Source: Spironucleus salmonicida (Eukaryota). Taken from it: a stretch of 64,000 nucleotides of DNA. Position 1 is the stretch's first letter; each line of letters begins with the position of its first letter. Under the pieces are notes generated by a model. It saw only the letters and a list, made by a program, of their open reading frames with translations, searched no databases and was not told the DNA's origin. The stretch is taken from the NCBI RefSeq assembly GCF_000497125.1, contig NC_090601.1, forward strand, positions 186,001-250,000, in the 5' to 3' direction. Made by a program: the position numbers and the translations under genes. Below, in pieces: positions 684 to 36,745 of this stretch.

Positions 684-3600
684 ATGGATAGCGAGGATGG
701 AAGAATATTATTTTTGAAATAAAGAGTTATTTAAACTCTCAAACCTAGGGAAGAAAAATGGAATAAATTAATAGACTAATTGGATGTATATGAAACATTG
801 TTATAATATTTTGAGTCAACAGAAGTAAATTAAATATTTATTTATTTGGATAAATAGGATAATTTACATCTAGAAAGGGAAGCTCCATCAGAGTTTAAAA
901 AATATGCACTAGCATTTGCAAAATTTTCAGATTAAGAAAAAATTTAAATAAATAATATTAAGATGATATTTTAATAGTATACTTTAGCTTCAAAAGAAAC
1001 AATTGGTAAGTTATAATTATTATATGGACCTTTGTTTTAGTAGTTTACAGATGATTTACCTGAAAGTGTTAGGCTTACCACACATTCTACATTATCAAAG
1101 CTTTATTTATAATTGTCTAGACCAGAATAAGGGGTTGCTCCGGTATTACCAGAATTACCAGATGAAATATATAATAAAATTAGTAATAAGTACAGCAAAG
1201 TTCCTTCATTGTTTTAGACTAATATTGGTCCTGAAAGAACAGTGGAAACATAATAGTGTTTGAGAGAAGCCGAATAATACTTATTAACCTGGAATAAAAT
1301 AATACTCTAAGAAATTAATTACAATTTACTTATTCAATATCCACACGAGGAGTTATTATTTTGGTCCAGTAAGTTATCCAACTTATAAGATTTAGAGATA
1401 TAATTTGAACATATTAAAGTATTATCTCTTAAACGATTCTTAACTAATTAAAAATCACCTTTGTTAGAAGTTATAGGCAAAACATTGGATACTATGAAAA
1501 ATAAAATTACTGAATGTGATAATAATTTATTATTTCTTAAGCCCTTAGAAGAGATTTTTGCTTTACTTGAGGATATATCGCAACTATCCAAAGTTACTAA
1601 CACATTCTTTAAAGCCTGCTCAATAATTACTGAGAATTCGTTATACTATAATAATCAAGAGCGTATAAAGATGTTCTTTAGAAGTTTTATTAACTAATTA
1701 ATTAAAACTATTTAATAATTTTTAGAGTTTGATAATATTTTAAAGGCAGATCCAATAGATTCATTACCTTTGGTTAATAAAGCAATTTTACTGTGCAAAT
1801 AAATTATATAAATTTATGACATTCATTACCTATCCTCTTGGCCATTTGCAAAAGAATTATTTTAAAATTTGAACTAATTTTATAACAGATTGAATGATAT
1901 CAAAACTATGTTATAAATCTGGATAAATCTGATGAAGTTAGAAAAATTAGAAGTTGGAGGATAAAACGGAGAATTAATATTTCATTAAGTTACCTAAATT
2001 TATAATTAATTCATCAATAGACTAATGATTTTATAAGAACCAGATTACGATCCTACTGATATAACTTAAAATAAATTTGACAAGGTATATATGGAATTTT
2101 TAAGATAATTTACAGAATGGGAAAAAAGATTAATTGGAATTTTATAAATGACTCTTTAATAAGATAATAAAATAGAATTTTATTGTGCAGTTATTTAACA
2201 ATTTTATGGTATATTAGAAAAAAGTGTATTAAAAGCAACTATAATAAAATAATTTTCATAATTTTAGAAAAAATTTCTAATTTTTATGCAAGAAAAATTA
2301 GTACTTATTTCTGAAAAATATAAAACTGTTTTATTTTCTGAATAAGTAAGATATAATATATAACTATAGTAAGTTATTCTTGAACAATTTGAGAAGGTAT
2401 AAATGATATATGAATCCATTGATGATGATTAGGTTTAATAAAAATTATAATCCATTGAAAAATAAGTTTAGTAAATTTCTACCAATCAGAATAACAAAAA
2501 TCAAGAATTATTTTAATAATGGCTACAATAAAATGATATATAGTTTTAACTTAGTAATTAATTATATTTAGTTAACATTGAATCAATTAATATTGAAACG
2601 GATTTAATAAAAATTTAAAGACATCAAGAATTAGACGAAAAATATACTCTAACACTTAATTATCATTCTGCTATTAAAGATTTTTTCTAAGACGCACATT
2701 CTTTTTCCCTGCTAGGATTTATTATACCTGAAAATTTAGTTGAAATTATTTATTAACATTCCCGGTTTGTAAATATTTAAAATGAGCTGAATATAAAATT
2801 TGAAGAATTTAATTATATTTAAAAAAATTTATCTTCAATAACCAAACCATTATTTTACTATGAGTTGGAACAAATTATAGATGTGATCTAACTAAATAAA
2901 AATAATCTAAAATGGAATTCAGCGGATTATCTTATTTAAGAATTTATTGATAAATTAGACATTATATCATCACTTAATATGAAAGTATTGTAACTGCGCC
3001 AGTTTTTTAAAACTTAAGACTAAATTGTTAAATAGCTGACTTAGTTATAATTATTTATTAAAATTAAATCATTATTTAATTTAGTGGACATCTAAAAATA
3101 GATCCCAATAAAGTTTAACACTATTAAAGAAAAACATTTTGATAATACAATTGAATAACTGTCATAAATTAAATAATCTGTTACAGATAGTAATTTATAA
3201 AATTGGGATAATTTTTTAATGTTTTAAACCTAAACACTTGCAAACTAACTTATATAATTAATTTTATTTTTATCAAGTAAGTTGATGAGTTAAATAGATG
3301 AATCTGAATAGTTTTCCTATTGTGATCTATTTTAAAAATAAAATCTCTTAAATGAAAATGCTTAACATTCAATTGAAATTTAAGCTATATTAAGACCCCC
3401 AATAGCATTATGTGATCCTAGTATTACTGATATTGATGGGCGAATAACTTTAGAAAAATTATTTTTAAATATATTTGATGAAATTTGCCAATTAGGTAAA
3501 TACTTGCCTAATTTAAGTGAATATGTAGATTAAAAATATTTAAGGTAAAATGAATATAAAAATTATGTTATTTATTGTTAAACTGCTTAAGAAGTGACCA

Positions 3601-6600
3601 GTTAAAAGAATAAGATTAGACATAAAATTTAAAGAAGGTGTAAGCTTGTTTAAGAAGAAATGAACATTCTATAAAAATATTATTATTTATATGAAATAGA
3701 CAAAAAATAATTCCTGTAAAGCTATTTAACATATGGACCTAATATAAATTGGCAAGGTATTCCAGAAGAATCAAAATTATAAGAAACTTAAAAAGTTATT
3801 AGAGAATAGTAGATTTAAGGTGAAGATGAAGTTACCACTATTAAGTCAGAAATAGATGTCTAATACTATAGAGAACCAGATCTGTATGATTTTAACGATA
3901 CTTTAAAAAGGTTTCAACAAATTGGAGAGGAATTATCCGCAGACTTACCTTTATAAAAAAGATTAGGGTGGATTTTACTTAACTTCAGACCCGTAAGAAG
4001 GTAACTGCAATAGAGTTCTGATCTTTTTAAATAGATGTTCCTGTAGCATTTAGTAACCTCTACATAACAACAACTGGAAAATTATGAACGATTTTTCGAT
4101 GAATCTCTTACATTGTTATAAAAAGCTGAATAAATACCAATGGGTTTAGATTTTGAGTAATTGCTAAGAACATATAAGTAAGTTAAATCTGAGGAACGAG
4201 TAATTAATTAAAAGTTTGAACCTCTTAAGAATACATTGTAGTTGCTAAAATCTCTAGAAGCAAATTATCCTGAATAATTAGAAAAGCTAATTGAAACTTA
4301 GCCTAACAAATGGATAAATGTAAAATAAGTTTGTCTTAAACAACAAGAATATATTTATTCAAAATAGTAAGAATAAGGAGGATTGTATTAAGAATAATAT
4401 TATGAATTCGCACAAGAGATAACAATCTATAAAGAGAAATATTTATAAAACCAAGCATTTAGTATTTAAGATAATGATGAAGCTTATTGTTTAATTGATA
4501 ATGTATATTAATATATTGAAAATTTATTACTTAAAGCCTTAATCTATGATGAGAAGTTGAAAATATTTGATTTTTCTACATAAAAGATTCCAGAGATAGA
4601 TATTATTGATCAACTTAAAAATGATCTAAAACTTCTTAAGACAACACGTGATGTTGGCGATATGATTTAAACATGGTTTTCAGAATTTGGAAAATCATTA
4701 TTTAAAACAATAAATACTGAAATATTAGAAGATAATATTAAAGCCTTAACTAAAGAATTCAAGAATATAAATAAGAATGCAAGAAAATTTGAGTATTATA
4801 AATATTTAGATAACCTTTTGAAAAATTTTTCAAAACTTTTACCTATTATAAATAATTTACGATCTCCCGCTGTAGAAGAGAAGCATATAAATTAAATTAA
4901 AGAAATAACAGGTAAAGATATTAATTTGTAAATGTCATTTAACGAGATTGTATAATTAGGTTTAGGCGAATTCGAAGAAGAAATAGTAACAGTTGTTGCA
5001 AAAGCTGAAAAAGAATTAACAATAGTGGAGTATATGCGTAATTTAGGTAGTTTTTGGTAAGTTCAAGAATTCAGTTTTATAAGAGTAGGCGATTAAACTG
5101 GATAAATTATGACAGTAGATGATGTTTTAAAAGATAAAGAATCTCAATTATATTCTATCATGATATCAGAAGATTTAAATGATACATTAGAATCAGATTT
5201 GATGACATTAGGTTAAATGTTAGCGAATAAATTGTTAACAGATTCACATCCAAGATTTAAAGAATGGTAAAATAAATTAGTTATATTAGACTCAGTAATT
5301 CAAACTTGGTTGAATGACTAAAAAGTTTGGTCTTACTTATATCCAATCTTTATGCTATCAGACGATATAAAATAGTAAATGCCAGAGGAAACCATCATTT
5401 TTTAGAAAGCACACAGTAGATATATTACGGAAATAAAATATGCTATCTATCATCCAGTAGCATTATAATTAGCAATTAAAGAAAACTTTTTGGGTTCATT
5501 AGAGGAAATTTAATTAAACCTGCATACGTGTGAGAAAAAATTAAATGACTACCTTGACCAGAAAAGAAAAATTTTTCCAAGATTTTTCTTCATTTCATCT
5601 GTTGATCTATTAGATATCCTCTCAAAAAGTAACTAGCCAATTTTAGTTGAAAAGCACTTGTCAAAACTAACCGATAATACTAAAAATATGTTATGGAACG
5701 GGGATAAAACTATTGGTATGGAATCATCTGAAGGAGAAAAAGTTAATTTCCCAGAAATACACCTAATTGGTCCAGTAGAAATATGGATGGAGTAATTTTT
5801 GGTATCTTCCAGAAACTCCTTAATGCAATTAATTAACTAAGCTTTAATTTTTATTGCAGAAAATAATGATAAATTAGCATTTTTGAATAATTTTCCAGCA
5901 CAAATAACACTTCTAGCACTTTAAATTGTATGGACTCAAGAAACCTTTGCTATTTTGGAGAAAGCTGAACTAGGGGACGATGTAGCTGTAAAAGAATATA
6001 ATAAGAAATAGAACGAGTAGCTGCTGGAATATATTAAACTTATTTAAACAACGTAAGACAAGTAATTTAGACAGAAAATATCAACCATATGCACAATTGA
6101 AGTACATAATAAGGATGTTGTTAGTGATTTAGCAAAATAAAAAGTAGATACACCGAACGCATTTTAGTGGTAATGTTAACTCAAATTTCATTATACAGAT
6201 ACATGTTTTTCAACAATCTGTGATGCAAGGTTCTAATACAGTTATGAGTATCTAGGCAATAATACTAGACTCGTTATCACACCATTAACGGATCGTTGTT
6301 ACATAACCTTGACATAAAGCCTTCATCTTATGCTGGGGGGAGCCCCAGCAGGGCCTGCTGGAACAGGAAAAACGGAAACTACAAAGGATTTAGGTAAGGC
6401 ACTGGGTAGAATGGTATATGTGTTCAACTGTTCACCTGAGATGGACTTTAAGTCATTAGGCTCCATTTTTTACGGGCTGGCAATTTCTGGTTCATGGGGC
6501 TGCTTTGATGAATTTAATAGAATAGAAGTTGAAGTATTATCAGTTGTTGCAATGTAAGTTAAAACAGTACTAGATGCAATTAGGGCTTAAAAAATATTTT

Positions 6601-6947
6601 TCTCATTAGATTAAGATGAAGAAAATCCAACTACACGACTTAATTCTGACGTCGGATATTTTATTACAATGAATCCTGGTTATGCTGGTAGAACTGAGCT
6701 TCCAGATAATTTAAAAGCATTATTCAGAGGTGTAGCTATGGTTGTTCCTGACTTTTGTTAAATTACAGAGATTATGTTAGTATCAAATGGTTTTATTTCT
6801 GCACGAAATCTAGCAAAAAAATTCACTACATTATATAGTTTAAATAGAGAACTACTATCGAAATAAGATCATTATGATTGGGGCTTAAGGGCTATTATAG
6901 CTATTTGTAGGACAGCTGGCATGTTGAGAAGAGAGATGATAAAGTGA
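684..6947 (+). CDS. Axonemal outer-arm dynein heavy chain (beta-like), N-terminal half only: tail + linker + AAA1, ~2087 aa
   Basis: Single frame from [29 protein letters not shown] through [39 protein letters not shown], Walker [44 protein letters not shown] and HYDWGLRAI, then AAG TGA at 6942-6947. Confidence 0.92.
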
Positions 6948-7002
6948 TCCAGGTATTCTTTTTAAAGGAACAAACAATTATATACTTGAATAAATATTTC
7001 AA

Positions 7003-10000
7003 TCACTCACACTATTAATTGCTCTATCTCTAATTAAGCACTTTTATTAAATATTTCTATTAATCTAATTGTTAAAGTAAATCCCTATTTTCCTATCGTA
7101 GTTTAATCATTAAAGATGAATTTGATGTCTAATAATCTTCATCAAAAGATAACTATAATGTACTAAAAGAACTATTTAAATTATTATGTGATCTAATAAG
7201 TAATTTTTATTCTTATAACTAACGACGCAGATCTAAGCATTGTTTGACTAATTATTATGTATTAGTATCCGTAATGCTTTATATAGTATAATCTAAATCT
7301 TTTTATAATTATATTATTTATTGATTTTTAAGATCAAAGTCTTTATTGAAAATTGACTGTTTACTTGTTTCCTTCATACTCAGTTAACTTTTCTCAATAA
7401 TAAAAGAACTAGATTATAAATTATCAATAGTAGCTGATGTTTATTCTAACTAGTTTTTCTACAAAATGATAATATTTTCTTTTTATATGATTACTTTTTA
7501 TAGCTCATCAATTTAATCCTTGGCATATTACAGCTATACACTAATACTTTATCTTTCTATTTATGAATTATTTAACATATCTTCAATTTACTATTCCAAA
7601 ATATTCATTTCTTCTTACTTAGAATTCATAGAGCTCTATTAAAGATCCATATTATGTTATTAAATGAGCTCAGACTATTATTATAATTACTCAATATGCT
7701 ATTGCTAAGAGAATAACCTGAGTTCTAGAATCTTAATACTTTTATGATTAGATTATAACAACTAATCCTAGCCAATTTTTTCATCCTAGCATTTCGTAGT
7801 TAAATCATTGCTTTGACTCAATTATTATTATAGACTAGCTTCTATGATTTAATGTTCTTTGATAATTTCTTCTAGTTTAAATTCTAATTACTATATGACT
7901 ACAATAGCATCTTTTTTTTGTTATTCAATAATACTGACCTAATTTTTCAATCTATCAACTTAAACAATAGTTTACTAATTCAATACCTGTTGTTATAGTA
8001 ATTTTTATTGATCTGACTAACAATTTGACATTTTATTAAAGTGTATTTCATGATCATTTTATAATTGCTAGCATTTATGTTATATTAAACTTAATTCCTC
8101 TGAAATCTAGACCTGTTCAGATATAATATCTACTATAATATTAGTTAAATCTTTTGTTTCATCATAAAAATTAGGTAAATTTAAACATTAATCAATATTC
8201 TTGAGTAATTTAGAAAATTTTAATATTTATTATTCCAAATTTTTGATTTTATTTTCAGCTTAACGTAATGTTTTTTAACTTATATTATGACTTTCTTTTA
8301 ATTAATTAACTTATGAGTTTAATATATTTTCATGATTATTAGCAGAATTCTAATATTAAAGTATTTCTCTATCTTTCAGTAAAATTACTTTTTCTAGTTC
8401 TAACTATTAGTGTTTTAACTCTTTACATTCTATATTTTATTAATCTTGAATATTTTTAGCCAAAATATTACTATTATATACTATTTGCTATTAATCTTGC
8501 TTTAACTGCTAAATTTACCGATCCTTTTCTAATTCTATTTAGAAAACTTAATCTTTGGCTCTAATAAGTTTTTAAGAAACAATCTATAATTCCTCTGTAA
8601 AATTTTATGATTCTCGCTCATACAACAATTATTTTTGCTAGATTTAATTTTAATAATCTTCAGTTTATTATTAATGAATGCGACTTTAATTAGTAAAATT
8701 ATATTCCATCTTATCAATCTCTTCCTATTTTTATACATACTAAGCTTTTAGTTAAGTTAATTTATCAGCTATATTTTACAGTTCTTCTTTTTGATCTGTC
8801 TCTCTACTATAAAGAGTTCTTATCTTTTTTGTTAGCTACTCGACTTCATATTCTAGTTTTTAATTTATTTCCACAATCTTTGTCAATTAATTACTATCTA
8901 GTATGCTTGAATTATCTTAATTTTGAATGGGCTATTTAATAGATTCTGTGCTAGATTTAAGTTAGCATAATAGGTTTTCATTTTATTAATTTACAAATTC
9001 TACTTTTTTTTTAAGTTAATGTGAGTCTTCTTTTGCTTATTATAATTTTAATGTTACTTCTTTAATGAGCTCATCTTACTCTTTTATAAGTTATTACTAA
9101 TTTATTAAGTTTTAAAATGATAGTTCAGTTTAAATAATTCTACTACAAATAAAATGCTCTGTCTCAGAACTTTAATCATATTTTTCTATAACATGGTTAG
9201 CTTTTATAGTTATCAGTAGAAGCTAATCTTGTAAGGACTATTTTTCAGATTATAATAAATTTAAATCCTATTGGATTAATTCATAATTATATTTCAACGT
9301 CTCATACTAAATATGTAATTTACTACTTTATATTTCTTATTCCTCATATTCAAGCATTTTTGTATTTAAATTTAGATTTTGTCTCACTAATTACTCATTC
9401 TGATGTAGTAAATTAGTAACTATTGAAGTTTAGTTTTACAATTGGTTAGATTCTTAGGTTAATTAGTCTTATAATGAAACAATTTATTGCTATTTACAAT
9501 TATTTTAATTATTAAATTCATCAATTTACCCAAATAATAGTAATATATTTTAAATTATATCTTGCTCTTGGCATTAAAGTGTATTCGCTATTTCAGATAA
9601 AATAAACTCGAAATTTGTATTATCACTACATTTAGATATGAGAGTCATGTTGTGTTCTTGATATTCCTATAATTATACTTTTGTATCTCGATTCTCTGAT
9701 TAAGAAAATAAAAATAAATGTTATAGCATTGAAAATGTATTAGTTAATGATAATACTTACTTATCTAGTAAATGAAGTTTCTCTTATAACAAATTTGAAA
9801 TATTATATATATCAGGAGGTTATTCTTATACTAAAGAGGTAAACATACTTGAAAATTGACTTTTTTATCCAAGTATTTCATTAAATGAACATTAAAGTGA
9901 AGTTATCGCATTTTAATTGGTATCTATTATACTAACTCCTCGAGTAATTTGCTGAGATTTAGATCTATTTCGATAGGGAGATTGCTATTAAAGTTTTTAC

Positions 10001-10011
10001 ACAATTGACAT
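7003..10011 (-). CDS. Coiled-coil hypothetical protein (~1002 aa)
   Basis: ATG 10011 (MSIVQKLQQQSPYRNRSKS...). Q/E/K/L-rich frame ending GAG TGA (AGTGA) at 7003. Spot-checked only. Confidence 0.75.
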
Positions 10012-10318
10012 TTTGGCGGAGTGAAAACAATATTCTGTCAAATACCCTATATATTAATAATTTATTTGTAGAACATTGTTGTGAAAAAATATAAATGTAA
10101 TAGTATTTTATATTGCTATGTTTACAGTTTTAAGTCAATGCTAGATATTCTTATAGACACTTGTGTATACTTATTTTATTGCAATAAATAACTCGATATA
10201 CGATAAGATAATTGTTAGTTTAAATATAAGTATTTTTATAGAATATTATATTCAAAGTAGAATATTAGGATTATCATTATTATTATATCTAATCTATGTA
10301 AAAATTGTGAAGAATACA

Positions 10319-13300
10319 ATGGATAATTTAAAGATATCAGAGTTAACACGCACACCTACCTTATAGACTCATTATAAAAAATCCTTACTAAATAGATCTT
10401 CTAGATCAAAGTCAACATTAGATGCTCCTGTAGTATCAGCTGTTACTGCTTAAGCTATTTAACTACTTCATTAGTCGTTCAAAGATTTAGCAAAAAGTTA
10501 AAACCATATGCAATAACATATAGATTTCAAGATATTACGCTTCGATTTTGAGCTATTACCTTTGAAGTTAAAGTATTTGTAAAATAAAATTCAAAAACTT
10601 GAAAATATTGTGTCAAAGCTTTAAATTTAATAATAAAACAAATAATTTACTGTAAAAACTTAGCAATAGATATAATAATCATTAAATGAGTTAAGTGAAT
10701 TCAATGATAGTTTAAGAAAGTAAGTAAATGATCAATAATGTAAATTAAGTAGTAATAATAATATGAAAAATAATATTTAATAAGTACTTTTGAAACATAA
10801 TTTTGATAAATTCCATCAAAAATCAGAAATTTAAAGAGATTAATATGTTGATGAGATCGGTATCCAGTTAGATCGAATTTTAGATCAAAAGTATTTAATC
10901 AAATAACTTAATGATATATTTGATTAAAAATTTATAAATATGGATTAGGTTATTGAATATTCAAGTAAATTAAAAATTTCTGAGATTTCAAGACGGGAAA
11001 GTAACAAATCAAGACGAGAAAGTGGTAGTTTTGCTGAACAAGATAAAGGGTATTACCAATAATTATGTTAAATGACTAAACAAAACGAATCATTAATCAA
11101 TGAAAATGTGCTTAAAAATGATCTATTGAAAGATCTTAAGATTTAACTTTAAGGATAGATTAAACGGCATGAAAACTATTAGAAAAAGATAGAGATAGAA
11201 AAAGAGAAAGAAAATCAATATTTTGTTATTAAAATACAAGATTTAGAGAAAGAGATCTAATAATTAAGAGATAGAGATACTGAATTCTAATAATTATAAG
11301 CTGAGAAAGACAGATTAATATAACAATATGTTGTTGCATTTTCGGAAAATATAAATATTGTTGAAGAAGTAAAGAAGTAAAATGATGATATAGCATCAGC
11401 TATAAATTCTATTCATAATAATAGTGGTAATAAAAATGATAATTTTAGTGTACTAAATGAAATAAAATAGTAATTGGGACAGTTAGACGATTTCAAAATT
11501 ACATATAGTTAATAATAACAAAACTATAATCTATTAAATTAAGTGTCATAAACCTAATAGTATTTAATAGATAGTTTTAAATCATTATAGTAGTAAGAAA
11601 AATATAATGACAAAATACTTCTTTTATAAGAAAAAATAATAAATTATGAACTAACATTACATGATCATCAAAATAATAATTAATAATAGACGTAGGAAAT
11701 AGAGCATCTACGCATGATAAATAAGGAAGCGGGGTCCGAGCTGAAGAACTTCTAGTAGGTGCTGATGTTAAAAGAGTAGTCGCATTGCGCACTTCAGCAG
11801 GAAGTCGATGGACTTTAAGTCTAGCTGGAGGAGACCAAGTTATTCTATGAAGGGAAGCAGGCAACCGACAAGTCTATGCAAATGTCACAGTACGCCTTGC
11901 CGGTATCATTGCAAACTAGTGCCCTCGTCGATTCGCAGGTGAGTGTCTTACGCAACGAAACGGTGGAGCTCTAGCAAAAGGCTTAGGAGCTAGAAGCTCA
12001 TGTTGATAAGTAAACAGAGTAACTTGTAAAAGTTACTTAGGACAAGGATACCAGAGAGAGGTAGATATAAAATCTTGCCTCTGAAAATGCTTAGCTTACT
12101 GGGCAGTTAGAGGATTTGAGATACTCAGTGCTGAATGAGTCTAAAACTATTGAAGGCAATTAGAAAACGATTGGAAATTTAAGGGAGGAACTAGTTCATA
12201 CATAGGCAATGGTTGACAAACTAATTGCCGAAAAGCAATAAAATATCTCAGCATCTACAGAGTAGCGCATGAACGAAACTAAACTTATGGAGCATATCAA
12301 CTCACTAGTTACTGAATAGTAGCAAGGTGTCACGACGATTTAAACATTACAATAGGAAATAGAGCATCTACGCATGATAAATAAGGAAGCGGGGTCCGAG
12401 CTGAAGAACTTCTAGTAGGTGCTGATGTTAAAAGAGTAGTCGCATTGCGCACTTCAGCAGGAAGTCGATGGACTTTAAGTCTAGCTGGAGGAGACCAAGT
12501 TATTCTATGAAGGGAAGCAGGCAACCGACAAGTCTATGCAAATGTCACAGTACGCCTTGCCGGTATCATTGCAAACTAGTGCCCTCGTCGATTCGCAGGT
12601 GAGTGTCTTACGCAACGAAACGGTGGAGCTCTAGCAAAAGGCTTAGGAGCTAGAAGCTCATGTTGATAAGTAAACAGAGTAACTTGTAAAAGTTACTTAG
12701 GACAAGGATACCAGAGAGAGGTAGATATAAAATCTTGCCTCTGAAAATGCTTAGCTTACTGGGCAGTTAGAGGATTTGAGATACTCAGTGCTGAATGAGT
12801 CTAAAACTATTGAAGGCAATTAGAAAACGATTGGAAATTTAAGGGAGGAACTAGTTCATACATAGGCAATGGTTGACAAACTAATTGCCGAAAAGCAATA
12901 AAATATCTCAGCATCTACAGAGTAGCGCATGAACGAAACTAAACTTATGGAGCATATCAACTCACTAGTTACTGAATAGTAGCAAGGTGTCACGACGATT
13001 TAAACATTACAATAGGAAATAGAGCATCTACGCATGATAAATAAGGAAGCGGGGTCCGAGCTGAAGAACTTCTAGTAGGTGCTGATGTTAAAAGAGTAGT
13101 CGCATTGCGCACTTCAGCAGGAAGTCGATGGACTTTAAGTCTAGCTGGAGGAGACCAAGTTATTCTATGAAGGGAAGCAGGCAACCGACAAGTCTATGCA
13201 AATGTCACAGTACGCCTTGCCGGTATCATTGCAAACTAGTGCCCTCGTCGATTCGCAGGTGAGTGTCTTACGCAACGAAACGGTGGAGCTCTAGCAAAAG

Positions 13301-16300
13301 GCTTAGGAGCTAGAAGCTCATGTTGATAAGTAAACAGAGTAACTTGTAAAAGTTACTTAGGACAAGGATACCAGAGAGAGGTAGATATAAAATCTTGCCT
13401 CTGAAAATGCTTAGCTTACTGGGCAGTTAGAGGATTTGAGATACTCAGTGCTGAATGAGTCTAAAACTATTGAAGGCAATTAGAAAACGATTGGAAATTT
13501 AAGGGAGGAACTAGTTCATACATAGGCAATGGTTGACAAACTAATTGCCGAAAAGCAATAAAATATCTCAGCATCTACAGAGTAGCGCATGAACGAAACT
13601 AAACTTATGGAGCATATCAACTCACTAGTTACTGAATAGTAGCAAGGTGTCACGACGATTTAAACATTACAATAGGAAATAGAGCATCTACGCATGATAA
13701 ATAAGGAAGCGGGGTTCGAGCTGAAGAACTTCTAGTAGGTGCTGATGTTAAAAGAGTAGTCGCATTGCGCACTTCAGCAGGAAGTCGATGGACTTTAAGT
13801 CTAGCTGGAGGAGACCAAGTTATTCTATGAAGGGAAGCAGGCAACCGACAAGTCTATGCAAATGTCACAGTACGCCTTGCCGGTATCATTGCAAACTAGT
13901 GCCCTCGTCGATTCGCAGGTGAGTGTCTTACGCAACGAAACGGTGGAGCTCTAGCAAAAGGCTTAGGAGCTAGAAGCTCATGTTGATAAGTAAACAGAGT
14001 AACTTGTAAAAGTTACTTAGGACAAGGATACCAGAGAGAGGTAGATATAAAATCTTGCCTCTGAAAATGCTTAGCTTACTGGGCAGTTAGAGGATTTGAG
14101 ATACTCAGTGCTGAATGAGTCTAAAACTATTGAAGGCAATTAGAAAACGATTGGAAATTTAAGGGAGGAACTAGTTCATACATAGGCAATGGTTGACAAA
14201 CTAATTGCCGAAAAGCAATAAAATATCTCAGCATCTACAGAGTAGCGCATGAACGAAACTAAACTTATGGAGCATATCAACTCACTAGTTACTGAATAGT
14301 AGCAAGGTGTCACGACGATTTAAACATTACAATAGGAAATAGAGCATCTACGCATGATAAATAAGGAAGCGGGGTTCGAGCTGAAGAACTTCTAGTAGGT
14401 GCTGATGTTAAAAGAGTAGTCGCATTGCGCACTTCAGCAGGAAGTCGATGGACTTTAAGTCTAGCTGGAGGAGACCAAGTTATTCTATGAAGGGAAGCAG
14501 GCAACCGACAAGTCTATGCAAATGTCACAGTACGCCTTGCCGGTATCATTGCAAACTAGTGCCCTCGTCGATTCGCAGGTGAGTGTCTTACGCAACGAAA
14601 CGGTGGAGCTCTAGCAAAAGGCTTAGGAGCTAGAAGCTCATGTTGATAAGTAAACAGAGTAACTTGTAAAAGTTACTTAGGACAAGGATACCAGAGAGAG
14701 GTAGATATAAAATCTTGCCTCTGAAAATGCTTAGCTTACTGGGCAGTTAGAGGATTTGAGATACTCAGTGCTGAATGAGTCTAAAACTATTGAAGGCAAT
14801 TAGAAAACGATTGGAAATTTAAGGGAGGAACTAGTTCATACATAGGCAATGGTTGACAAACTAATTGCCGAAAAGCAATAAAATATCTCAGCATCTACAG
14901 AGTAGCGCATGAACGAAACTAAACTTATGGAGCATATCAACTCACTAGTTACTGAATAGTAGCAAGGTGTCACGACGATTTAAACATTACAATAGGAAAT
15001 AGAGCATCTACGCATGATAAATAAGGAAGCGGGGTTCGAGCTGAAGAACTTCTAGTAGGTGCTGATGTTAAAAGAGTAGTCGCATTGCGCACTTCAGCAG
15101 GAAGTCGATGGACTTTAAGTCTAGCTGGAGGAGACCAAGTTATTCTATGAAGGGAAGCAGGCAACCGACAAGTCTATGCAAATGTCACAGTACGCCTTGC
15201 CGGTATCATTGCAAACTAGTGCCCTCGTCGATTCGCAGGTGAGTGTCTTACGCAACGAAACGGTGGAGCTCTAGCAAAAGGCTTAGGAGCTAGAAGCTCA
15301 TGTTGATAAGTAAACAGAGTAACTTGTAAAAGTTACTTAGGACAAGGATACCAGAGAGAGGTAGATATAAAATCTTGCCTCTGAAAATGCTTAGCTTACT
15401 GGGCAGTTAGAGGATTTGAGATACTCAGTGCTGAATGAGTCTAAAACTATTGAAGGCAATTAGAAAACGATTGGAAATTTAAGGGAGGAACTAGTTCATA
15501 CATAGGCAATGGTTGACAAACTAATTGCCGAAAAGCAATAAAATATCTCAGCATCTACAGAGTAGCGCATGAACGAAACTAAACTTATGGAGCATATCAA
15601 CTCACTAGTTACTGAATAGTAGCAAGGTGTCACGACGATTTAAACATTACAATAGGAAATAGAGCATCTACGCATGATAAATAAGGAAGCGGGGTTCGAG
15701 CTGAAGAACTTCTAGTAGGTGCTGATGTTAAAAGAGTAGTCGCATTGCGCACTTCAGCAGGAAGTCGATGGACTTTAAGTCTAGCTGGAGGAGACCAAGT
15801 TATTCTATGAAGGGAAGCAGGCAACCGACAAGTCTATGCAAATGTCACAGTACGCCTTGCCGGTATCATTGCAAACTAGTGCCCTCGTCGATTCGCAGGT
15901 GAGTGTCTTACGCAACGAAACGGTGGAGCTCTAGCAAAAGGCTTAGGAGCTAGAAGATACAGTAGTATAGTTAAATAACTTAATATCAGATATTCAAAGC
16001 TAAAAATAATAGCTTAAATAACAATTGTTGTTATTTGAATCTGAAAATTTGAATCTAACAAAATAATTACTTAGATATCAAAATATAAAAGACACACAAC
16101 TACCGGATCATAGTAATATTACAGCTAGTTCATAGACTATTTTGACTTATGATTTGATTGATGTGATTGATTATCAAAATGATACACTTAAATTTGATCT
16201 CAGATAACAGTAACATTAAAACTAAGAAGTTACTAAAATACAGTTTAATCTGCAAACTTAGGTATAAGATCTTCGAGAATAAAATATTGAACTTAATATG

Positions 16301-17140
16301 TTACTAAAAAGATAGTAGGAAAAGAATTTAAAGTTATTGGATATTAATAAGTTTTTAGAAAAACAATTAGATAGCAACATTAATACAACTTAATAATCGA
16401 ACCTGTAAAATGATCAAAAACAGACTAATATAATTAAATCTTAATAGCATGTTAATGATTTAGAAAAATCTCTTAAAAATTTAAATAAAGATTGTAAAAT
16501 TTTCAAGTAAAAGCTTTCTGAAACATAAATTCAACTTGACAATAAAGATGAATTTTATTAAACCTAACTATAATAATAAGCAGAAGAATTATTACTAGCA
16601 CATAGAGAAAGAGATAATTCTATAAATACTCTTAAATAAGTGTAAAAAGACTTATAAGAAACAAAATAAGATCTAATAACACTAAAATAAAACTTAAACT
16701 CTAATACATTGTAAAACTTGGTGTAAGTATAAGAATAAGAAATTTTGCTACTTAAATAGTAGATGAATAATTAAAATAATTCTATGGTTATGTCTTAAAT
16801 AAGCAAATCTTAAACAATATTATCCGCTTTGGAAGACTCAATTATAGCACCTAAGTCTGTGATAGAAGATATACGTAGTATTAAATTATTAGTATTTGAT
16901 GTATTTTAGTTATCAGAAGATGAAAGAATTAGAGGATAATTAAAATAAGCCTGTGATAGGTTAGCAACAGTTATATTTGCGCTGACATTTAAATAAAATT
17001 GTGATTTTTTAGACTAAAGTGAAGATTTAGCATTTTCCAGGTTGCTTATTGAGAAACAGGAAGAAAGATAAAAGCGAATGAATTAAGGCAGCTTAAGTTA
17101 ACTAGAAGGAAGTTAAGTAAGTCTGAGTGGTTTCATTTGA
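10319..17140 (+). CDS. Large coiled-coil protein (~2273 aa) with ~6.5 internal 220-aa repeats
   Basis: ATG 10319 (MDNLKISELTRTPTLQ...). The frame stays open through the 660-bp array (EHLRMINKEAGSELKNFQQVLMLKEQ...) and ends ...QVSLSGFI TGA, followed immediately by AGTGA. Confidence 0.85.
11693..15956 (+). repeat. Coding tandem repeat, 660-bp unit, ~6.46 near-identical copies
   Basis: Identical lines recur at 11701, 12361, 13021, 13681, 14341, 15001 and 15661. The only difference seen is ggggtCcgag (copies 1-3) versus ggggtTcgag (copies 4-7). Confidence 0.98.
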
Positions 17141-19347: not shown

Positions 19348-20634
19348 TCACTCTTATATTAGTTTCTACTCTTCTAGTGGTATACCTTATTCAACTTTTA
19401 TTTATTCAGAACACTACAATTTTTACTTTTCATATTACCTTATTGTATCGACTACAACTTTACCTAAATTTATTAACTTAAATCCATCTTCATGGCTAAT
19501 TGCGAATTTAAATTCAAATCGTTAAACTTCTATCCCACCACCTTTTAGTATCGCAATCGCTACCATTTTCTCAATACTCTTAGAATTCCATCCAAATGCT
19601 CCAAAAAATGCACAATGTTTCCCATTTATTAGAGTAAGAGAAGATAAATATCGCAATACTGACATTATTTTCGGGGTAGCACATCCATTTATTGTTGGAG
19701 ATCCAACAATCATTCCTTTTGCCTCCAAAAGCTCTGCAGCAATTTTAGTTAGGCCAACCACTCTGACATCGCATATAATATATTTCATACCACAATTAAT
19801 TATTTAAGATGCGATAAGTTTGGCAGCATGTTCAGTTTAATTATAAATAGTATCAAATAATATTACAATTTTATTCTAATTATAAACATTAGTTGTAAAT
19901 TAAATAAAATACTAAACAGCATGATTAAGCTATTCCCCTCTCCAACACACTCCATGAGCAGTTAATATATATTTTGGTTCAAATTCTAAAATAAATGGTA
20001 CTAGTTTTTCACAAATTAATCTACAAGGGGACACAATATTAGCAATATATTCCTTGAAAAGTTTCATCAGGTGATCAAAATGGTGTATTTCATCTGCATA
20101 TCTCTCAGTACATGCAATATGTTATCCAAACGCATCATTTGAGAATAATATATGATTCTCTTTATCAATTGTCCACATTGATTCAGGCCAATGAACTTTA
20201 GTAAACTTAAACATTAATTCTCTATTTCCTGTATTAATTATTGATTCTTCATCAATAATTTCAAACTCATAATCATTAAGCGTTGGAAATTATGAAACTA
20301 ATAAATCTTTACATAATTTATTACAAATTAATTTTGCGTGTGGGATTCGTTACATTAGAATTGGAAGTCCTGATGTATGATCTCCTTCTGCATGATTAAT
20401 TATGATTTGCTATATTTATTATATATCTATAATAGAACCTATTCTATCAATATGTTCTTCAATAAGTGTATGTTTTACAGAATCGACTAAAGTAATGATA
20501 TCATCCTAAAGTAGATATGAATTATAGGTTGTTCCTTCCTCTGTTTCATGCCCATGAAACTGTCTTATTGTCCAATCAATAGCACCGACCCATTATATTT
20601 AGGGTAGAACTTCATTAGATGACATATGCATCAT
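19348..20634 (-). CDS. Flavodiiron protein (A-type flavoprotein, FprA-like), paralog 1, 428 aa
   Basis: WVGAIDWTIRQFHG, GTTYNSYL, diiron ligand motifs NHAEGDH, HWPES, SNDAFGQH and TAHG, flavodoxin motifs GSPTING and FGAFGW; ends GAG TGA. Confidence 0.92.
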
Positions 20635-21034
20635 TTATTTTAAATATTATAATATTATATAATATAGAGTTAATATAATTAACATATATGTAAGTAAAGT
20701 TTTATGTTAATGACATAAGCCTAAAATATAATTTAGATTTAGATTATCTTATGCTGCAATAAATATAAGTTATTTGCTTAATATGAAATATCTAAATGAA
20801 AAAAGTAACATAGCTTATTTTGTAGTTTAGCCTAATAAAACAATTTAAAATTAAAACAAACACATTAGAACCATGTTATACTTGATGAACTTCTACTTAT
20901 ATAAATATTTCCTCATTTATACTATATGTTTTAATTATTTTATACTATACCATAAAATAGTACCTAAAACAGTTGTATCTCCGTCATTATTGCCATTTTT
21001 TCCATTAATCACTTTTACAAATATACAAATAACC

Positions 21035-22321
21035 TCACTCACTCTCATGTTACATCACACTAGATTCACTAATTTCGCCATTTTCGTCCTCCTATTTCTC
21101 TTCTTATATCAAAATTTTAGATTTTATCGCTTCTGCAATTTCGCAACCTAAGGCAAAGAGACTCTCTCTGCTTTTGTCACCCAGCAAGTACTTAAATTCA
21201 ACCTTACCAATAACGTTGCAATTAGCGCTTTCCAGATACGTTTCCATCATATTAAGGCTCTTTTACGCCCATCCGAACGCACCAAAAACGCACCCTGGTT
21301 TGTTGCCAATCAGTTGCAGCCCCCTTAGGTAGCGCAAAGCAGCCTCAGTTTTAACGCTCAGCCTGCTGTTAATCGTCGGACTCCCAAAAGCGATACCGCC
21401 TGCATCGTACGCGTGATATGCAACTTTTGTCAAATCGACAACGCGCAAATCGCAGATTTGTGACCGAACTCCGCAAGAGTACGCGCCTTCTGAAAGCGTT
21501 TTTGCTGCATTTTCAGTGGCGCCGTAAACTGAGTCGAAAACAATCAAAAGTTTCTGTTTCAAGTTCAGTCGATGTGCGTAAAGCGAGTATTCACGAAGGG
21601 GATAACCTAAAAAATCACCCCGCCAGGAGCAACCATGCGCAGTCAAAATGTACTCAATTTTAAGAGTTGCTGCGGCCTTTAGCGCAGTTCGGATCGGGGC
21701 ACGAAATGGACCCAGAATGTTTGCTGTATACTCTTTGAGTAAGTACATTAAGTGCTCTATGTCCTGGACCTGGTCTGCCCAACGGTCTGTTGAGGCGATA
21801 TGCTGCCCAAATCCATCGTTTGAGAAAAGAATATTGTTGGTCGCATCTAGAGTGAACATTGAATCTGGCCAATGCAGGTTTGGAACTAGCAAGAATCCAA
21901 GTGTTCTAGAGCCTGTACTAATGGTTTTTGAATTATCCACTAACTACCAGCTACAGGATTTTAACGACGGGTAGAGTATACAGAGGTGTTCTTTACAAAC
22001 CTTATTTGTTATTATAGTGGCATTGGGAAATTTTGGCATCACTAGAGGAAGTGCACTGGTATGATCTCCTTCAGCATGATTCACAATAATCTATTTAATC
22101 TAATCGAGGGGAATTACCGCACTAACTCTTTCTAAAAACTCTTCCCAAAAAGGTTCTTTCACACAATCAATAAGCGTAGGAATAGTATCCTTAATTAAAT
22201 AAGCATTATATGACGACCCTTCATCAGTATGATATCCATGAAATATTCTAATTGTCCAATCAATTGCACCTACCCAAAATACATTTGGCAACATCTCTGT
22301 GCTAGTAACAAAGTTAGTCAT
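21035..22321 (-). CDS. Flavodiiron protein (A-type flavoprotein, FprA-like), paralog 2, 428 aa
   Basis: WVGAIDWTIRIFHGY, GSSYNAYL, NHAEGDH, LHWPDSMFT, SNDGFGQH, TAHG, FDSVYGATE, GSPTIN and FGAFGW; ends AGT GAG TGA. Confidence 0.95.
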
Positions 22322-22423: not shown

Positions 22424-23434
22424 ATGTTTGGTTTTGATTTTGATGTTTTAACAGTGGAAGATTAATTAAATATTACAGGAGGATCGTGTATTGGAGCTAT
22501 TATATCAATATTATATTGCATAATAATATTTAAATATACTACAATAGTTCATTAGTAAGAAGAAATTGTAATTGAACGATGTGGCTAGTATAAAAAAGTT
22601 CTTTAGCCTGGTTGCCATTGTCTTCTTCCATTTTTTGATGCTAAGGTAGAATTTATTGCTGTTGACTATCACTTCAACATCAGCAACCATCACGTGCAGC
22701 AGTCGGTGACCGAGCGCAAGGGCCAAGATAAGTTCATTATTGACAAGCGCCTCCAGGTTCTGGATATGCCATTGCAGCCAGTTATTACCCGTGATAACGT
22801 CCAGCTTGAGGTGCACCCTATGGCGCTATACAAAGTAACGGACTCCATGCTCGCGGTTTACGAGGTACAAAATCTGTACTCCTCGATCTAAATTTTAATA
22901 TCAACTACACTTTCAGACATAATTGGAAGAATTACATTGGATGACACCCTCTGCTCTAGACAGGAGGTAAGACGCTAGGTATTCAACCAGATCCATTCTA
23001 CCATCTAAAACTGGGGAGCCCTATTGATCGAAGTTGACATCCTCGAAATAGATCCCCCTGAAAACATTGTTACAGCGATGGAAGCTCAGTTACTGGCAGA
23101 GCGTGAGAGAAGAGCTAAATTAGTAGAAGCTGACGCTGACCGCTAAATAAAGAAAATCATGGCTGACTCGCTTAGCCAGGAAAAGATACAGCTAGTAACA
23201 GGTGAAAGTCAGAGCATGGTCATGATAGCAGAAGCGGAAGCAGAAGGGCAAAAGGCCATAGGTATGGCGCAGGCTGAAGTAATTGGCATGCTGAGCGGAA
23301 AGGTGAAAGGATTTGATGTTGGTGATTTCCAGCTAAAAAACTACTGGCTCGATGCTATCGAAGCAGTGGCGATCAATAGTAGGAACGTGCAGTTGGTGAA
23401 GGGCGTAAGTATTCTATAGAAGCTTTCTGAGTGA
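22424..23434 (+). CDS. SPFH/band-7 (stomatin/QmcA-like) membrane protein, 336 aa, intact copy
   Basis: N-terminal hydrophobic segment, then IVHQQEEIVIERCGQYKKVLQPG, DMPLQPVITRDNV, IGRITLDDTLCSR, WGALLIEVDILEIDPP, AMEAQLLAERERRA and AEAEA repeats; ends GAG TGA. Confidence 0.9.
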
Positions 23435-25670
23435 CAATTTCTGTTAGTACTTCCGTTGCTTCGATTATAATGCCTTTATAATATTATATTTATCGAAATG
23501 AATTTCCTGTTTCCACTTCTTCATAATGATTACTACTGTCCGTGTTTCTCAATCCTGATGACATATACAAAATTGTATGATTTTCAAATATTTATATTCT
23601 ATGTATCACTTCTTCAGCACTGGCTTTGGGGCTCCGATCCCAGTTATTCTGAGACCATTCACTCCCAATGGCATGGCACGTTGCTGCAGTACTGGCTTTG
23701 CACTGCTGATACGTTTTATTTATGGGTTTCCCATATCAATCGTGTTAATCTCAGACTGTCTTTCGCACTCCTCAGCCTCTCGGGCGGCGATTATTTTATC
23801 TCGGTCTCTCTGCTCTATTTTGGTATCGTCTATACATACCAGATCTATATTCGATTCCAATATATCGAATACGTAGCTCTTTGATAGCTTAGAATATTTG
23901 AGGCAGAACGGGTTGTTTGCACAGCGGATCACCTACAGGTTTCCAGCCTTGGATACAAAGTTCTCAATCTAAGAAATGTTAGATATTTTGCATGATTCAC
24001 AATTTAAGCTACGAAGGGTGGAACGAACTGCTAGCGCAATCTCCAGATCTCTGGCGGCGTACGATATATCCAGCGCCACAAGGCATGGGAGTTTGGATAG
24101 GGTATCTTTCGATACATTCAGGAATTGGTTCTGGGAGAGGTCGAGTAATACTATCGAAGGAATAAATCCGAATTATGCAGGTACTAGAGACTTCAGCATA
24201 GACCTTTGGAGGTGAAGGTGCTTGATCGGTGCATGGAAGTCGTTGTTTCGGATGACCTTAACTGGATTTCCATTCAATATTAATGTTTCTAGAGCTGTAT
24301 GGTTTAATTATATGTTAAACGGATCAATGATGTCGTTTTCTGAGAGATCCACATACTTCACTTTCGGAAAATCCCTAAGATCGCTGAGAGAAGATAGCTA
24401 GTTGCCAGTGAGAATTAAAGTATGGACCTCCGATACTATGTGTTATATACCCGGGTCTACGCCTATGCTTGTCAATCCCAACCCAGATAAATCCAGAACA
24501 TAGTTCTAGATACTCCGTATTCTCAGGATTTGGGGGTTAATCCGACTAGTTAACTCTTAAATTTTTAGCTATCGCATCGGTTCTGTAATGATCATGTCGT
24601 TGATGAGGCCTAAGTCTGGAAGAAAATATAAGAAATCCTCAACCTTTTCGTTGTCTATTAGTAAGTGTGTTATCTTATTGAAATTCAGTAGTGACTCAGA
24701 ATTAAAACTAGCCTGCATAAGATTGACTATTTATATATGCGGTGGTAGATTAGTAATCGCACCAGAGTGAAGTTCCTTCAGATTATGCATGGTATTAGGA
24801 TTCAGTGCACATTCACAGTTCTGTATATCCAACGCAATCATTTTCTAGAGATTGATATTTTTAAGCTATCCTTGCGTTACATCTGAAAAAGGGATGCGGA
24901 GCTAAGTTATGCCGGTAAACTTGGCCAGGAACTACACCTAAAACTTATATACTTCTGGCGCGTGTATTCCAAATAGGTTTTCCTAGTTAAGAATTTATAA
25001 TGGTGGAGTAAGGACCCCCTGGTATTCCAAATTGACAGCATCGGCATGTTGGTCCAGAAACGGCTACAGAAAAGCATTAGATTGATGCAATTAGTCATGG
25101 CAACAATTGTATTACATCACACCAATAGATGTAATTCCTCTGTTTTCTATGAGACTTGTAATGGTACTAACATGGATACCATTTATCATCTTAATGTTCT
25201 TGAAATATCTTAGAATTTAGGTAAACACGTTATACTCCTGGTTTGGAAACAGGTTGCCATTATAATTTAAAACTTCCAAGCTATTTTTAGTCTGTTGAGA
25301 AATCCCTGAAAATATAGCCATAAACGAAAACTGGTTGAAAGATAAATCCAATACTCGCAGAGTAGGGCAATTTACTTTTATCTTCACAAGTTTATTCTTA
25401 GATAAATTAAGCTCCAGTAAAGCACTAGATTCAAACGAAAATGTTTGCATATCATTATATGATAGGTCGATGCAGTGTATTTCATGCAACTAGCTAAGTA
25501 TTTCCCCAATATTGTCTGGATAAGTAGGACACATATTGTGAAGATCTAAAGCGTGCTATACTGAGTATACAAGTCTATCGGCCACAGATTCTTCGAAATT
25601 TGTCGTGGAAAGAACTGGAGATCGTACATAGGTCTCCATACCGCCTTGCTCGCCAAATTGATGCAATATA
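22666..25670. repeat. Left arm of a ~3.0-kb inverted duplication (partner 34681-37685)
   Basis: Position p pairs with 60351-p throughout (e.g. 22694/37657, 25489/34862). Mismatches seen only at 25015/35336 and 25661/34690. Confidence 0.97.
23606..25670 (-). pseudogene. 5'-truncated copy of the LRR gene 33413-36745; frame intact, could start at internal ATG 25639 or upstream ATG 25771
   Basis: Reverse complement of 34681-36745, lacking the first ~423 codons of the full gene. Confidence 0.75.
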
Positions 25671-33412: not shown

Positions 33413-36400
33413 ATGACTATAAATATAAATAATTTCTTCTCTGAGGTTTCATCTGACATTCTGCGGTTAAAAGCCTAAGATACAAAGTCAGATTATTTTT
33501 TATAGACAGAGGTACCTTTAGAGGTAAATACTGAAATTTTTAGAGCAGTTAGATGCAGACTTAATGTTTAACCAACCCCTAGCAAATATTCATATTTTGA
33601 TGGAAATTAAATAAGTGAAGGTTAATGCGGGAATGCAGAGCTATTAAGTCTATCCATGAACCCTTTAATTTTAATGAAACCTTCATAAACCATAAAAGCG
33701 CTATGCCTATCATTTACTAAAATCACAAGGTTAGATTTATCAGATTATGAGAATTTATAAACTTTTTCTGTAAAGGGCTGCTCATATTTGTAATCTATCA
33801 ATTGGTCTAGTTTTACTGGATTTGCTGATATACAATAAACTAGAATTTCTTTATTACCATCAACATAAAATATACGTTATGATAAAATTGACGACCGTTT
33901 ACAATATTCTATATTAAATCATAATAAATCTACATTAGAGTAAAATTTTGAGCTTATTCAAAAATATAATGTTTCATTATTAGTAAATATTTAATCTAAA
34001 CTAAAACTATTTTTATTATAAAACAAATTACTTAGTGATATTTATGACGTATAAAATGATATTTCTGATATTAATCTTATATAAAATTAAAGAAAATCTA
34101 ATCAATAATATATTTCTGCCACTGAGTTACAAGTAAACTAAGATTTATTTTTAAATAAAACCAATCTTCTTACCAACTTAAATGTATGCTTATAGTAAAT
34201 ATAAAAGTTTTATTAAGACATTTAATTTGAGTATTTTGTTAAAAATTTACCAATATTATCATATTTTAAAACTTTAAATATCAATGTATAGTAGTTAGAT
34301 AGATATACATACTCTATTGAAAATAATAATTTAACAGATATATCGATTAAATTATGTTTCGAGGATGTAGAAATTGCTAACGGAAAAATGATGTATGATC
34401 CTACAGAATTCCAAAATTACATAATAAATAATTCCAAAACCATATATGTTAAAATATAGAATCAAAACATATTAAAATTTATTGCGGAAGGATATTAGTA
34501 TAATTTCTCTACGTCTGTAACATAGTATGTTTTATCAGACAACTAAATGTAATTTTAAAGTTATGTTTAATGTAAATAAATAGCTATATAAAAATCTTAA
34601 GAGTATATATTAGTTCCAGAAATAATAAAAGTAGACGATTAACTTTTAAATTATGATAGTATATTACTTAGGTAATAGTCTATATTGCAGCAATTTGGCG
34701 AGCAAGGCGGTATGGAGACCTATGTACGATCTCCAGTTCTTTCCACGACAAATTTCGAAGAATCTGTGGCCGATAGACTTGTATACTCAGTATAGCACGC
34801 TTTAGATCTTCACAATATGTGTCCTACTTATCCAGACAATATTGGGGAAATACTTAGCTAGTTGCATGAAATACACTGCATCGACCTATCATATAATGAT
34901 ATGCAAACATTTTCGTTTGAATCTAGTGCTTTACTGGAGCTTAATTTATCTAAGAATAAACTTGTGAAGATAAAAGTAAATTGCCCTACTCTGCGAGTAT
35001 TGGATTTATCTTTCAACCAGTTTTCGTTTATGGCTATATTTTCAGGGATTTCTCAACAGACTAAAAATAGCTTGGAAGTTTTAAATTATAATGGCAACCT
35101 GTTTCCAAACCAGGAGTATAACGTGTTTACCTAAATTCTAAGATATTTCAAGAACATTAAGATGATAAATGGTATCCATGTTAGTACCATTACAAGTCTC
35201 ATAGAAAACAGAGGAATTACATCTATTGGTGTGATGTAATACAATTGTTGCCATGACTAATTGCATCAATCTAATGCTTTTCTGTAGCCGTTTCTGGACC
35301 AACATGCCGATGCTGTCAATTTGGAATACCAGGGGTTCCTTACTCCACCATTATAAATTCTTAACTAGGAAAACCTATTTGGAATACACGCGCCAGAAGT
35401 ATATAAGTTTTAGGTGTAGTTCCTGGCCAAGTTTACCGGCATAACTTAGCTCCGCATCCCTTTTTCAGATGTAACGCAAGGATAGCTTAAAAATATCAAT
35501 CTCTAGAAAATGATTGCGTTGGATATACAGAACTGTGAATGTGCACTGAATCCTAATACCATGCATAATCTGAAGGAACTTCACTCTGGTGCGATTACTA
35601 ATCTACCACCGCATATATAAATAGTCAATCTTATGCAGGCTAGTTTTAATTCTGAGTCACTACTGAATTTCAATAAGATAACACACTTACTAATAGACAA
35701 CGAAAAGGTTGAGGATTTCTTATATTTTCTTCCAGACTTAGGCCTCATCAACGACATGATCATTACAGAACCGATGCGATAGCTAAAAATTTAAGAGTTA
35801 ACTAGTCGGATTAACCCCCAAATCCTGAGAATACGGAGTATCTAGAACTATGTTCTGGATTTATCTGGGTTGGGATTGACAAGCATAGGCGTAGACCCGG
35901 GTATATAACACATAGTATCGGAGGTCCATACTTTAATTCTCACTGGCAACTAGCTATCTTCTCTCAGCGATCTTAGGGATTTTCCGAAAGTGAAGTATGT
36001 GGATCTCTCAGAAAACGACATCATTGATCCGTTTAACATATAATTAAACCATACAGCTCTAGAAACATTAATATTGAATGGAAATCCAGTTAAGGTCATC
36101 CGAAACAACGACTTCCATGCACCGATCAAGCACCTTCACCTCCAAAGGTCTATGCTGAAGTCTCTAGTACCTGCATAATTCGGATTTATTCCTTCGATAG
36201 TATTACTCGACCTCTCCCAGAACCAATTCCTGAATGTATCGAAAGATACCCTATCCAAACTCCCATGCCTTGTGGCGCTGGATATATCGTACGCCGCCAG
36301 AGATCTGGAGATTGCGCTAGCAGTTCGTTCCACCCTTCGTAGCTTAAATTGTGAATCATGCAAAATATCTAACATTTCTTAGATTGAGAACTTTGTATCC

Positions 36401-36745
36401 AAGGCTGGAAACCTGTAGGTGATCCGCTGTGCAAACAACCCGTTCTGCCTCAAATATTCTAAGCTATCAAAGAGCTACGTATTCGATATATTGGAATCGA
36501 ATATAGATCTGGTATGTATAGACGATACCAAAATAGAGCAGAGAGACCGAGATAAAATAATCGCCGCCCGAGAGGCTGAGGAGTGCGAAAGACAGTCTGA
36601 GATTAACACGATTGATATGGGAAACCCATAAATAAAACGTATCAGCAGTGCAAAGCCAGTACTGCAGCAACGTGCCATGCCATTGGGAGTGAATGGTCTC
36701 AGAATAACTGGGATCGGAGCCCCAAAGCCAGTGCTGAAGAAGTGA
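33413..36745 (+). CDS. Leucine-rich repeat protein, ~1110 aa, full-length copy
   Basis: ATG 33413, with the frame continuous into the duplicated arm (ILQQFGEQGGMETY...IHCIDLSYNDM...LELNLSKNKL...LRVLDLSFNQF...TLILTGNQLSSL); ends AAG TGA. Confidence 0.85.

Follow-up and report, generated by a model that had tools for sequence, protein, structure and literature searches.

Dynein heavy chains that are encoded in pieces have been described from both Basidiomycota and diplomonads. In the former, the breaks lie in AAA4 in Ustilago, in AAA1 in Wallemia, and ahead of the motor in Agaricomycetes (Kollmar, 2016; PMC5100056, cited here and below for those parts of the paper that were available). Three parts of the outer-arm dynein beta heavy chain (DHC4) that are trans-spliced in Giardia form one exon in Spironucleus, where the N-terminal gene is duplicated, and the legend to Figure S8 of the same paper names SsaDHC4_1a and SsaDHC4_1b, which are 33% identical, together with SsaDHC4_2, a set that would enable two complexes (Kollmar, 2016). 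The core finding treated here, the split DHC4 gene set of Spironucleus salmonicida, is thus already in print. This article considers one member of that set, an open reading frame (ORF) at positions 684–6947 of the plus strand of a 64,000-nucleotide stretch of the S. salmonicida genome (contig NC_090601.1, positions 186,001 to 250,000; G000:C6:186001-250000, hereafter the window), which is, as judged from its sequence, the N-terminal half of the DHC4 chain and not a whole heavy chain. With a probability of roughly 0.85, the outer-arm dynein (OAD) beta chain of this species has undergone fission and has two alternative N-terminal subunits, the window gene encoding one of them and a separate gene the C-terminal half.

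Under translation table 6, the gene is a single open frame of 2087 codons, and an initial annotation of this DNA, which had described a dynein frame of about that length with conserved motor motifs, was reproduced in its frame, its quoted C-terminus, and its AAA1 motifs. The protein comprises a DHC_N1 tail region (aa 199–747, 1278–2924; Pfam PF08385, E 4.7e-51), a DHC_N2 region running into the linker (aa 1309–1720, 4608–5843; PF08393, E 1.7e-84), and, within AAA1, the large subdomain and lid helices one to three (aa 1852–2084, 6237–6935; PF12774, E 3.7e-108), the helix order being taken from a model of an intact homolog. Sequence comparison shows AAA1 to retain an intact GPAGTGKT (6351–6374) and an intact CFDEFNRI (6501–6524), which we take to be the Walker A motif and the Walker B region, respectively. 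In alignments of relatives, the terminal lid helix (6876–6944) carries a sensor-II-type GLR and a signature typical of split forms (..RTAG.LRR.MI). The protein stops inside the AAA1 small (lid) subdomain, since only positions 1–229 of the 327 in the AAA1 model PF12774 (AAA_6) are matched; the end had earlier been placed just after AAA1, which is too far downstream. The best matches in the PDB are DNAH17, DNAH9, and OAD beta chains, and the AAA1 tree places the protein with DNAH9/11/17 in a clade with a support of 99. Membership of the OAD beta class is also indicated by the long tail with DHC_N1 and DHC_N2 and by the intact AAA1 nucleotide motifs, whereas AAA2–6, the stalk, and the microtubule-binding domain (MTBD) are found not on the same polypeptide but on a separate gene (G000:C4:216045-223553).

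None of the 15 genome matches to the stalk and MTBD model (PF12777) falls inside the window, and the earlier statement that the rest of the motor is absent from it therefore stands. The best of these 15 lies on C4, in an ORF (216045-223553) that is not preceded by an AAA1 large domain. This ORF encodes 2502 aa with its own initiator methionine and consists of AAA_6 positions 233–327, AAA2–6, the stalk and MTBD, and the C-terminal domain; it is the partner that was to be sought near the AAA1/AAA2 junction. An in-frame ATG lies upstream, but the MSFNLEE start agrees with that of the Giardia C-half. The C-half has its own upstream gene and appears to be single, as a search of the genome with it returned one match at 97%, the other 19 of 20 being partial or at most 43% identical over the full query. 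An AAA1 search of the same genome gave 16 matches, the second best of which (66%) is a paralog of the window gene at C6:1326467-1333357, 1.1 Mb away. The paralog, whose sequence matches NCBI protein P0004 of S. salmonicida exactly, stops at the same site and then adds a short basic tail and an AGTGA; the two N-halves share 788 identities, or 34% over the alignment length. Ten of the 13 other AAA1 loci were placed on the tree, and all of them fall outside the OAD beta clade and have frames without a stop as far as the retrieved locus extends, so that no full-length DHC4 paralog occurs among the loci placed. Two of the matches (L003 and L004, G000:C6:120999-122234 and 154044-155279) lie 33 kb apart on the same contig and are nearly identical copies of a different dynein heavy chain.

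The two halves are complementary. Their coverage of AAA_6 (1–229 and 233–327) corresponds to an N-half that reaches residue 2037 of DNAH17 and a C-half that starts from 2042, or 2059 and 2065, respectively, on DNAH9, such that about four to five loop residues of the intact chain are covered by neither. When an intact homolog is modeled with AlphaFold (33 sequences, mean pLDDT 71), the break is seen to lie in a five-residue loop between lid helices 112–130 and 136–146, the third and fourth of five. The C-half opens with a methionine and a short conserved new head, followed by the last two lid helices. The proposed comparison with Giardia gave agreement on both sides of the junction.

The age of the break was examined in a set of 120 proteins from a first search that bear a HYDWG motif, with lengths counted from the motif start. 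Eight end 25–38 aa after this point, namely both Spironucleus copies and those of Hexamita inflata, Giardia muris, G. intestinalis, Dysnectes brevis, Kipferlia bialata, and the record P0009, whereas the next shortest continue for 88 and 96 aa. Proteins ending 88–258 aa past the motif, with the exception of three from Skoliomonas, were set aside as probably truncated gene models, a judgment made from the protein records. The corresponding C-halves, which start at the equivalent position and have a comparable new head, were found in G. intestinalis, G. muris, Hexamita, Kipferlia, and one further record, and the junction is read through in Aduncisulcus paluster, Gefionella, and three Skoliomonas isolates. 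The last helix shows an RT signature in 23 of 23 short-ending proteins (eight clusters, mostly Giardia variants) as against 2 of 418 continuing ones, and in a tree that includes Dysnectes and Kipferlia the split forms separate from the intact forms at 85/88 with the signature columns omitted, Aduncisulcus branching next. The same break and shared substitutions in Hexamita, Giardia, Dysnectes, and Kipferlia, together with the intact chain of Aduncisulcus, suggest as the simplest reading, with moderate support, a single fission that predates the diplomonads. The initial annotation had raised the possibility of a fission common to diplomonads; Hexamita and Giardia do share it, but its range is wider and takes in Dysnectes and Kipferlia.

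Split-type N-halves also differ in their content. Those of Dysnectes (P0007, aa 1833–2245) and Kipferlia (P0020, aa 1942–2344) carry an intein-like insert of about 400–410 aa with a Hint domain, at the same site directly behind the lysine of the AAA1 Walker A motif; the insert has a Pfam Hom_end_hint match, a cysteine at its start, and His-Asn at its end before a threonine. Dynein inteins have been reported for Anaeramoeba in a paper whose text and supplements name neither Dysnectes nor Kipferlia (PMC10710043). P0009, an ENA protein of 2173 aa, is a split-type N-half without the insert that branches near Kipferlia and points to a fornicate-like lineage sharing the fission.

Skoliomonas presents a different break. 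The N-parts of isolates GEM-RC1, TZLM3-RCL, and TZLM1-RC (P0010, P0011, and P0012; isolate names from PMC11603281, seen in part) end 210–211 aa past the motif, inside AAA2 and just before its Walker B, and share a new basic, coiled-coil-like, non-dynein tail. The C-part, retrieved for one of the three isolates (TZLM1-RC; P0323, 2373 aa), has about 92 novel residues at its start, after which the dynein sequence sets in again at the AAA2 Walker B strand; on the Aduncisulcus chain, the TZLM1-RC N-part extends to position 648 and the C-part starts from 656. These protein records suggest that this outer-arm beta chain underwent a second and independent fission, within AAA2.

At the 3′ end of the window gene, the stop codon lies within AGTGA (6943–6947, plus strand), a putative polyadenylation signal overlapping the stop, as described in the part of Xu et al. 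(2014; PMC3916229) that was available. The motif closes 8 of the 18 window ORFs of at least 500 aa, some of which are probably spurious antisense frames, against a background of 90 among 2287 TGA trinucleotides, in keeping with its earlier description as a motif used by neighboring genes. A convergent, glutamine-rich ORF of 1002 aa (7003–10011, minus strand) that is unrelated to dynein and gave no match in a Pfam search ends after a spacer of 55 nt, as had been noted, and leaves no room for a continuation of the dynein. Contigs from four runs of a single study, presumed to be RNA, provide weak evidence on transcription; regions without contig cover are uninformative, and contig depth cannot rank expression. 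Contigs of all four runs cover the 3′ end without a single difference and end at 6937–6958, those of three runs cross the stop, and two loose contig ends resemble what we presume to be sequencing adapter.

Several observations weigh against the window gene being an alternative N-terminal subunit of an anciently split chain. Its branch is longer than that of the paralog (0.73 vs 0.21), it is about 200 aa shorter, it has lost the short basic C-terminal tail of other N-halves, and it is AT-richer, with a GC content at third codon positions of 0.20 as opposed to 0.28. Beyond the gene itself, the tree lacks three of the 13 other AAA1 loci in the genome (L011, L012, and L014, with AAA1 matches of 37–40%), for Kipferlia the C-half is known from a partial model of 263 aa, no Dysnectes C-half was found when searched for, the single-origin branch has only moderate support (85/88, unstarred), and independent translation of the pieces in Giardia is known second-hand, from Roy (2012) as cited by Kollmar (2016). 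The peculiarities of the gene would be accounted for if the fission were real but the window copy were a decaying or non-motor duplicate, only P0004 pairing with the C-half, and the tail might be read in the same way, being only 26–27% identical to that of the paralog and 22–27% to those of relatives, for which P0004 reaches 35–44%. Such decay is nevertheless unlikely, given that the 6.2 kb frame has stayed open, that AAA1 shares 85% identity with the paralog and 78–86% with Hexamita and Giardia, all motifs and the terminal helix being retained, that AGTGA is kept, and, as weak evidence, that the 3′ end is covered by contigs of the four runs. A diverged yet still constrained isoform, with selection on the motor interface and a diverging tail, fits these comparisons better.

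Whether the two RNAs are instead trans-spliced into one full-length mRNA deserves attention, as Giardia joins the three C-terminal parts of the same chain in this way (PMC5100056). This is very improbable in the present case, because the extra residues at the junction (the basic tail and the MSxxLEEI-type head) are conserved across genera on both halves, no branch-point-like motif occurs in the roughly 340 nt that surround the C-half start, and no joint of the window gene to another locus appears in the contigs of the four runs, a weak negative, those of three runs continuing through the stop. The splice signals at fragment ends and the joined transcripts that mark Giardia-type split introns were thus not seen, and the available part of Roy (2017; PMC5224939) reports no trans-splicing in S. 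salmonicida. An assembly misjoin or sequencing error near 6947 is more improbable still: no contig spans the 55-nt spacer with 31 letters to either side of it, but contigs match the window without differences up to 6952–6958, the C-half is encoded elsewhere behind an upstream gene of its own, and the same end point recurs in seven other protein clusters, one of them that of the paralog 1.1 Mb away, which is taken to refute a misjoin. The events named at the outset as fatal to a fission, namely a misjoin, a full-length paralog accompanied by decay, or splicing to a downstream half, were not encountered among the loci placed on the tree or in the contigs of the four runs, and the proposal of a functional gene fission is supported by the complementary partner gene, the Giardia-like break, and the strongly conserved AAA1.

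If the window gene is an N-terminal subunit of a split chain, the two mRNAs would be translated separately and the AAA1 lid bundle completed in trans by the two proteins, whose binding is predicted, with the ring closed via its normal non-covalent contacts. The dynein AAA1 site takes its arginine finger from AAA2, and for this reason the main ATPase site (AAA1 motifs plus AAA2 arginine finger) would span two polypeptides. The single C-half may pair with either N-half to give two outer-arm isoforms with the tail as their main point of difference, and the fission probably occurred once, after Aduncisulcus branched and before Kipferlia did. The outer-arm motor of a lineage of swimming cells would then appear to run with its main ATPase domain cut in a lid loop, a natural, tolerated break that could be used for building two-piece dynein motors. 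That free-living relatives share the split indicates that it did not arise through genome reduction in parasites, and it also appears to be older than the trans-spliced introns of Giardia. The existence of two N-halves makes isoform-specific outer arms testable. A broader synthesis, which we put slightly below even odds, would combine one ancient fission in the ancestor of Kipferlia, Dysnectes, and diplomonads, a co-evolved interface, and an exchangeable module of tail, linker, and AAA1, by which Spironucleus would fit a single motor body with two very different tails, the window copy being an isoform that evolves fast and serves certain flagella, zones of the axoneme, or stages, with the second, independent AAA2 fission in Skoliomonas, where newly gained helical appendages may re-couple the halves. 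Were this so, the OAD beta chain would be a repeated target of fission in metamonads.

Other features of the window are unconnected with the dynein. The ORF at 10118–17140 (plus strand) contains at 11693–15952 seven copies of a sequence at 660-nt spacing that are 100% identical over a 300-nt reference; this stretch is GC-richer, encodes a 220-aa repeat, and reflects either a recent expansion or an assembly effect. Pfam matches on this ORF were disregarded, as no stretch passed. Positions 22666–25670 and 34681–37685 form an inverted duplication of 3005 nt, 100% complementary and 9 kb apart, that copies the 3′ part of a leucine-rich repeat (LRR) gene and the end of a Band 7 gene. The ORF at 19348–21048 (minus strand) has an ODP-family beta-lactamase-fold match and presumably resembles a flavodiiron (A-type flavoprotein) enzyme.

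In comparison with known systems, the locus agrees with the published Spironucleus set in its duplicated N-half (34% identity here and 33% for SsaDHC4_1a/1b) and its one single-exon C-half at a distant locus, as SsaDHC4_2; no structural difference from that set is seen, and the window gene is either 1a or 1b. The available text of Kollmar (2016) does not locate the break to a residue, does not mention a rate asymmetry, and follows the split no deeper than Giardia and Spironucleus. The extension to Kipferlia, Dysnectes, and Hexamita, the Skoliomonas split, and the inserts were not found in a literature search outside which lay subscription papers and Kollmar's sequence database, and they go unmentioned in PMC5874029 (which lacks the word "dynein"), PMC10711314, PMC12338079, PMC10710043 with its supplements, PMC7985675, and the main text of a Carpediemonas preprint. 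Basidiomycota likewise possess a heavy chain made as two polypeptides, and some species duplicate the N-half, but those splits concern the cytoplasmic class, have other break points, and are of independent origin (Kollmar, 2016). Another close counterpart is G. intestinalis GilDHC4_1 to _4 (Kamikawa, 2011, and Roy, 2012, via Kollmar, 2016), in which the N-half end and the C-half start are the same (P0228 and P0252); the C-half there is assembled from three trans-spliced pieces, whereas in Spironucleus it is one ORF and it is the N-half that has been duplicated.

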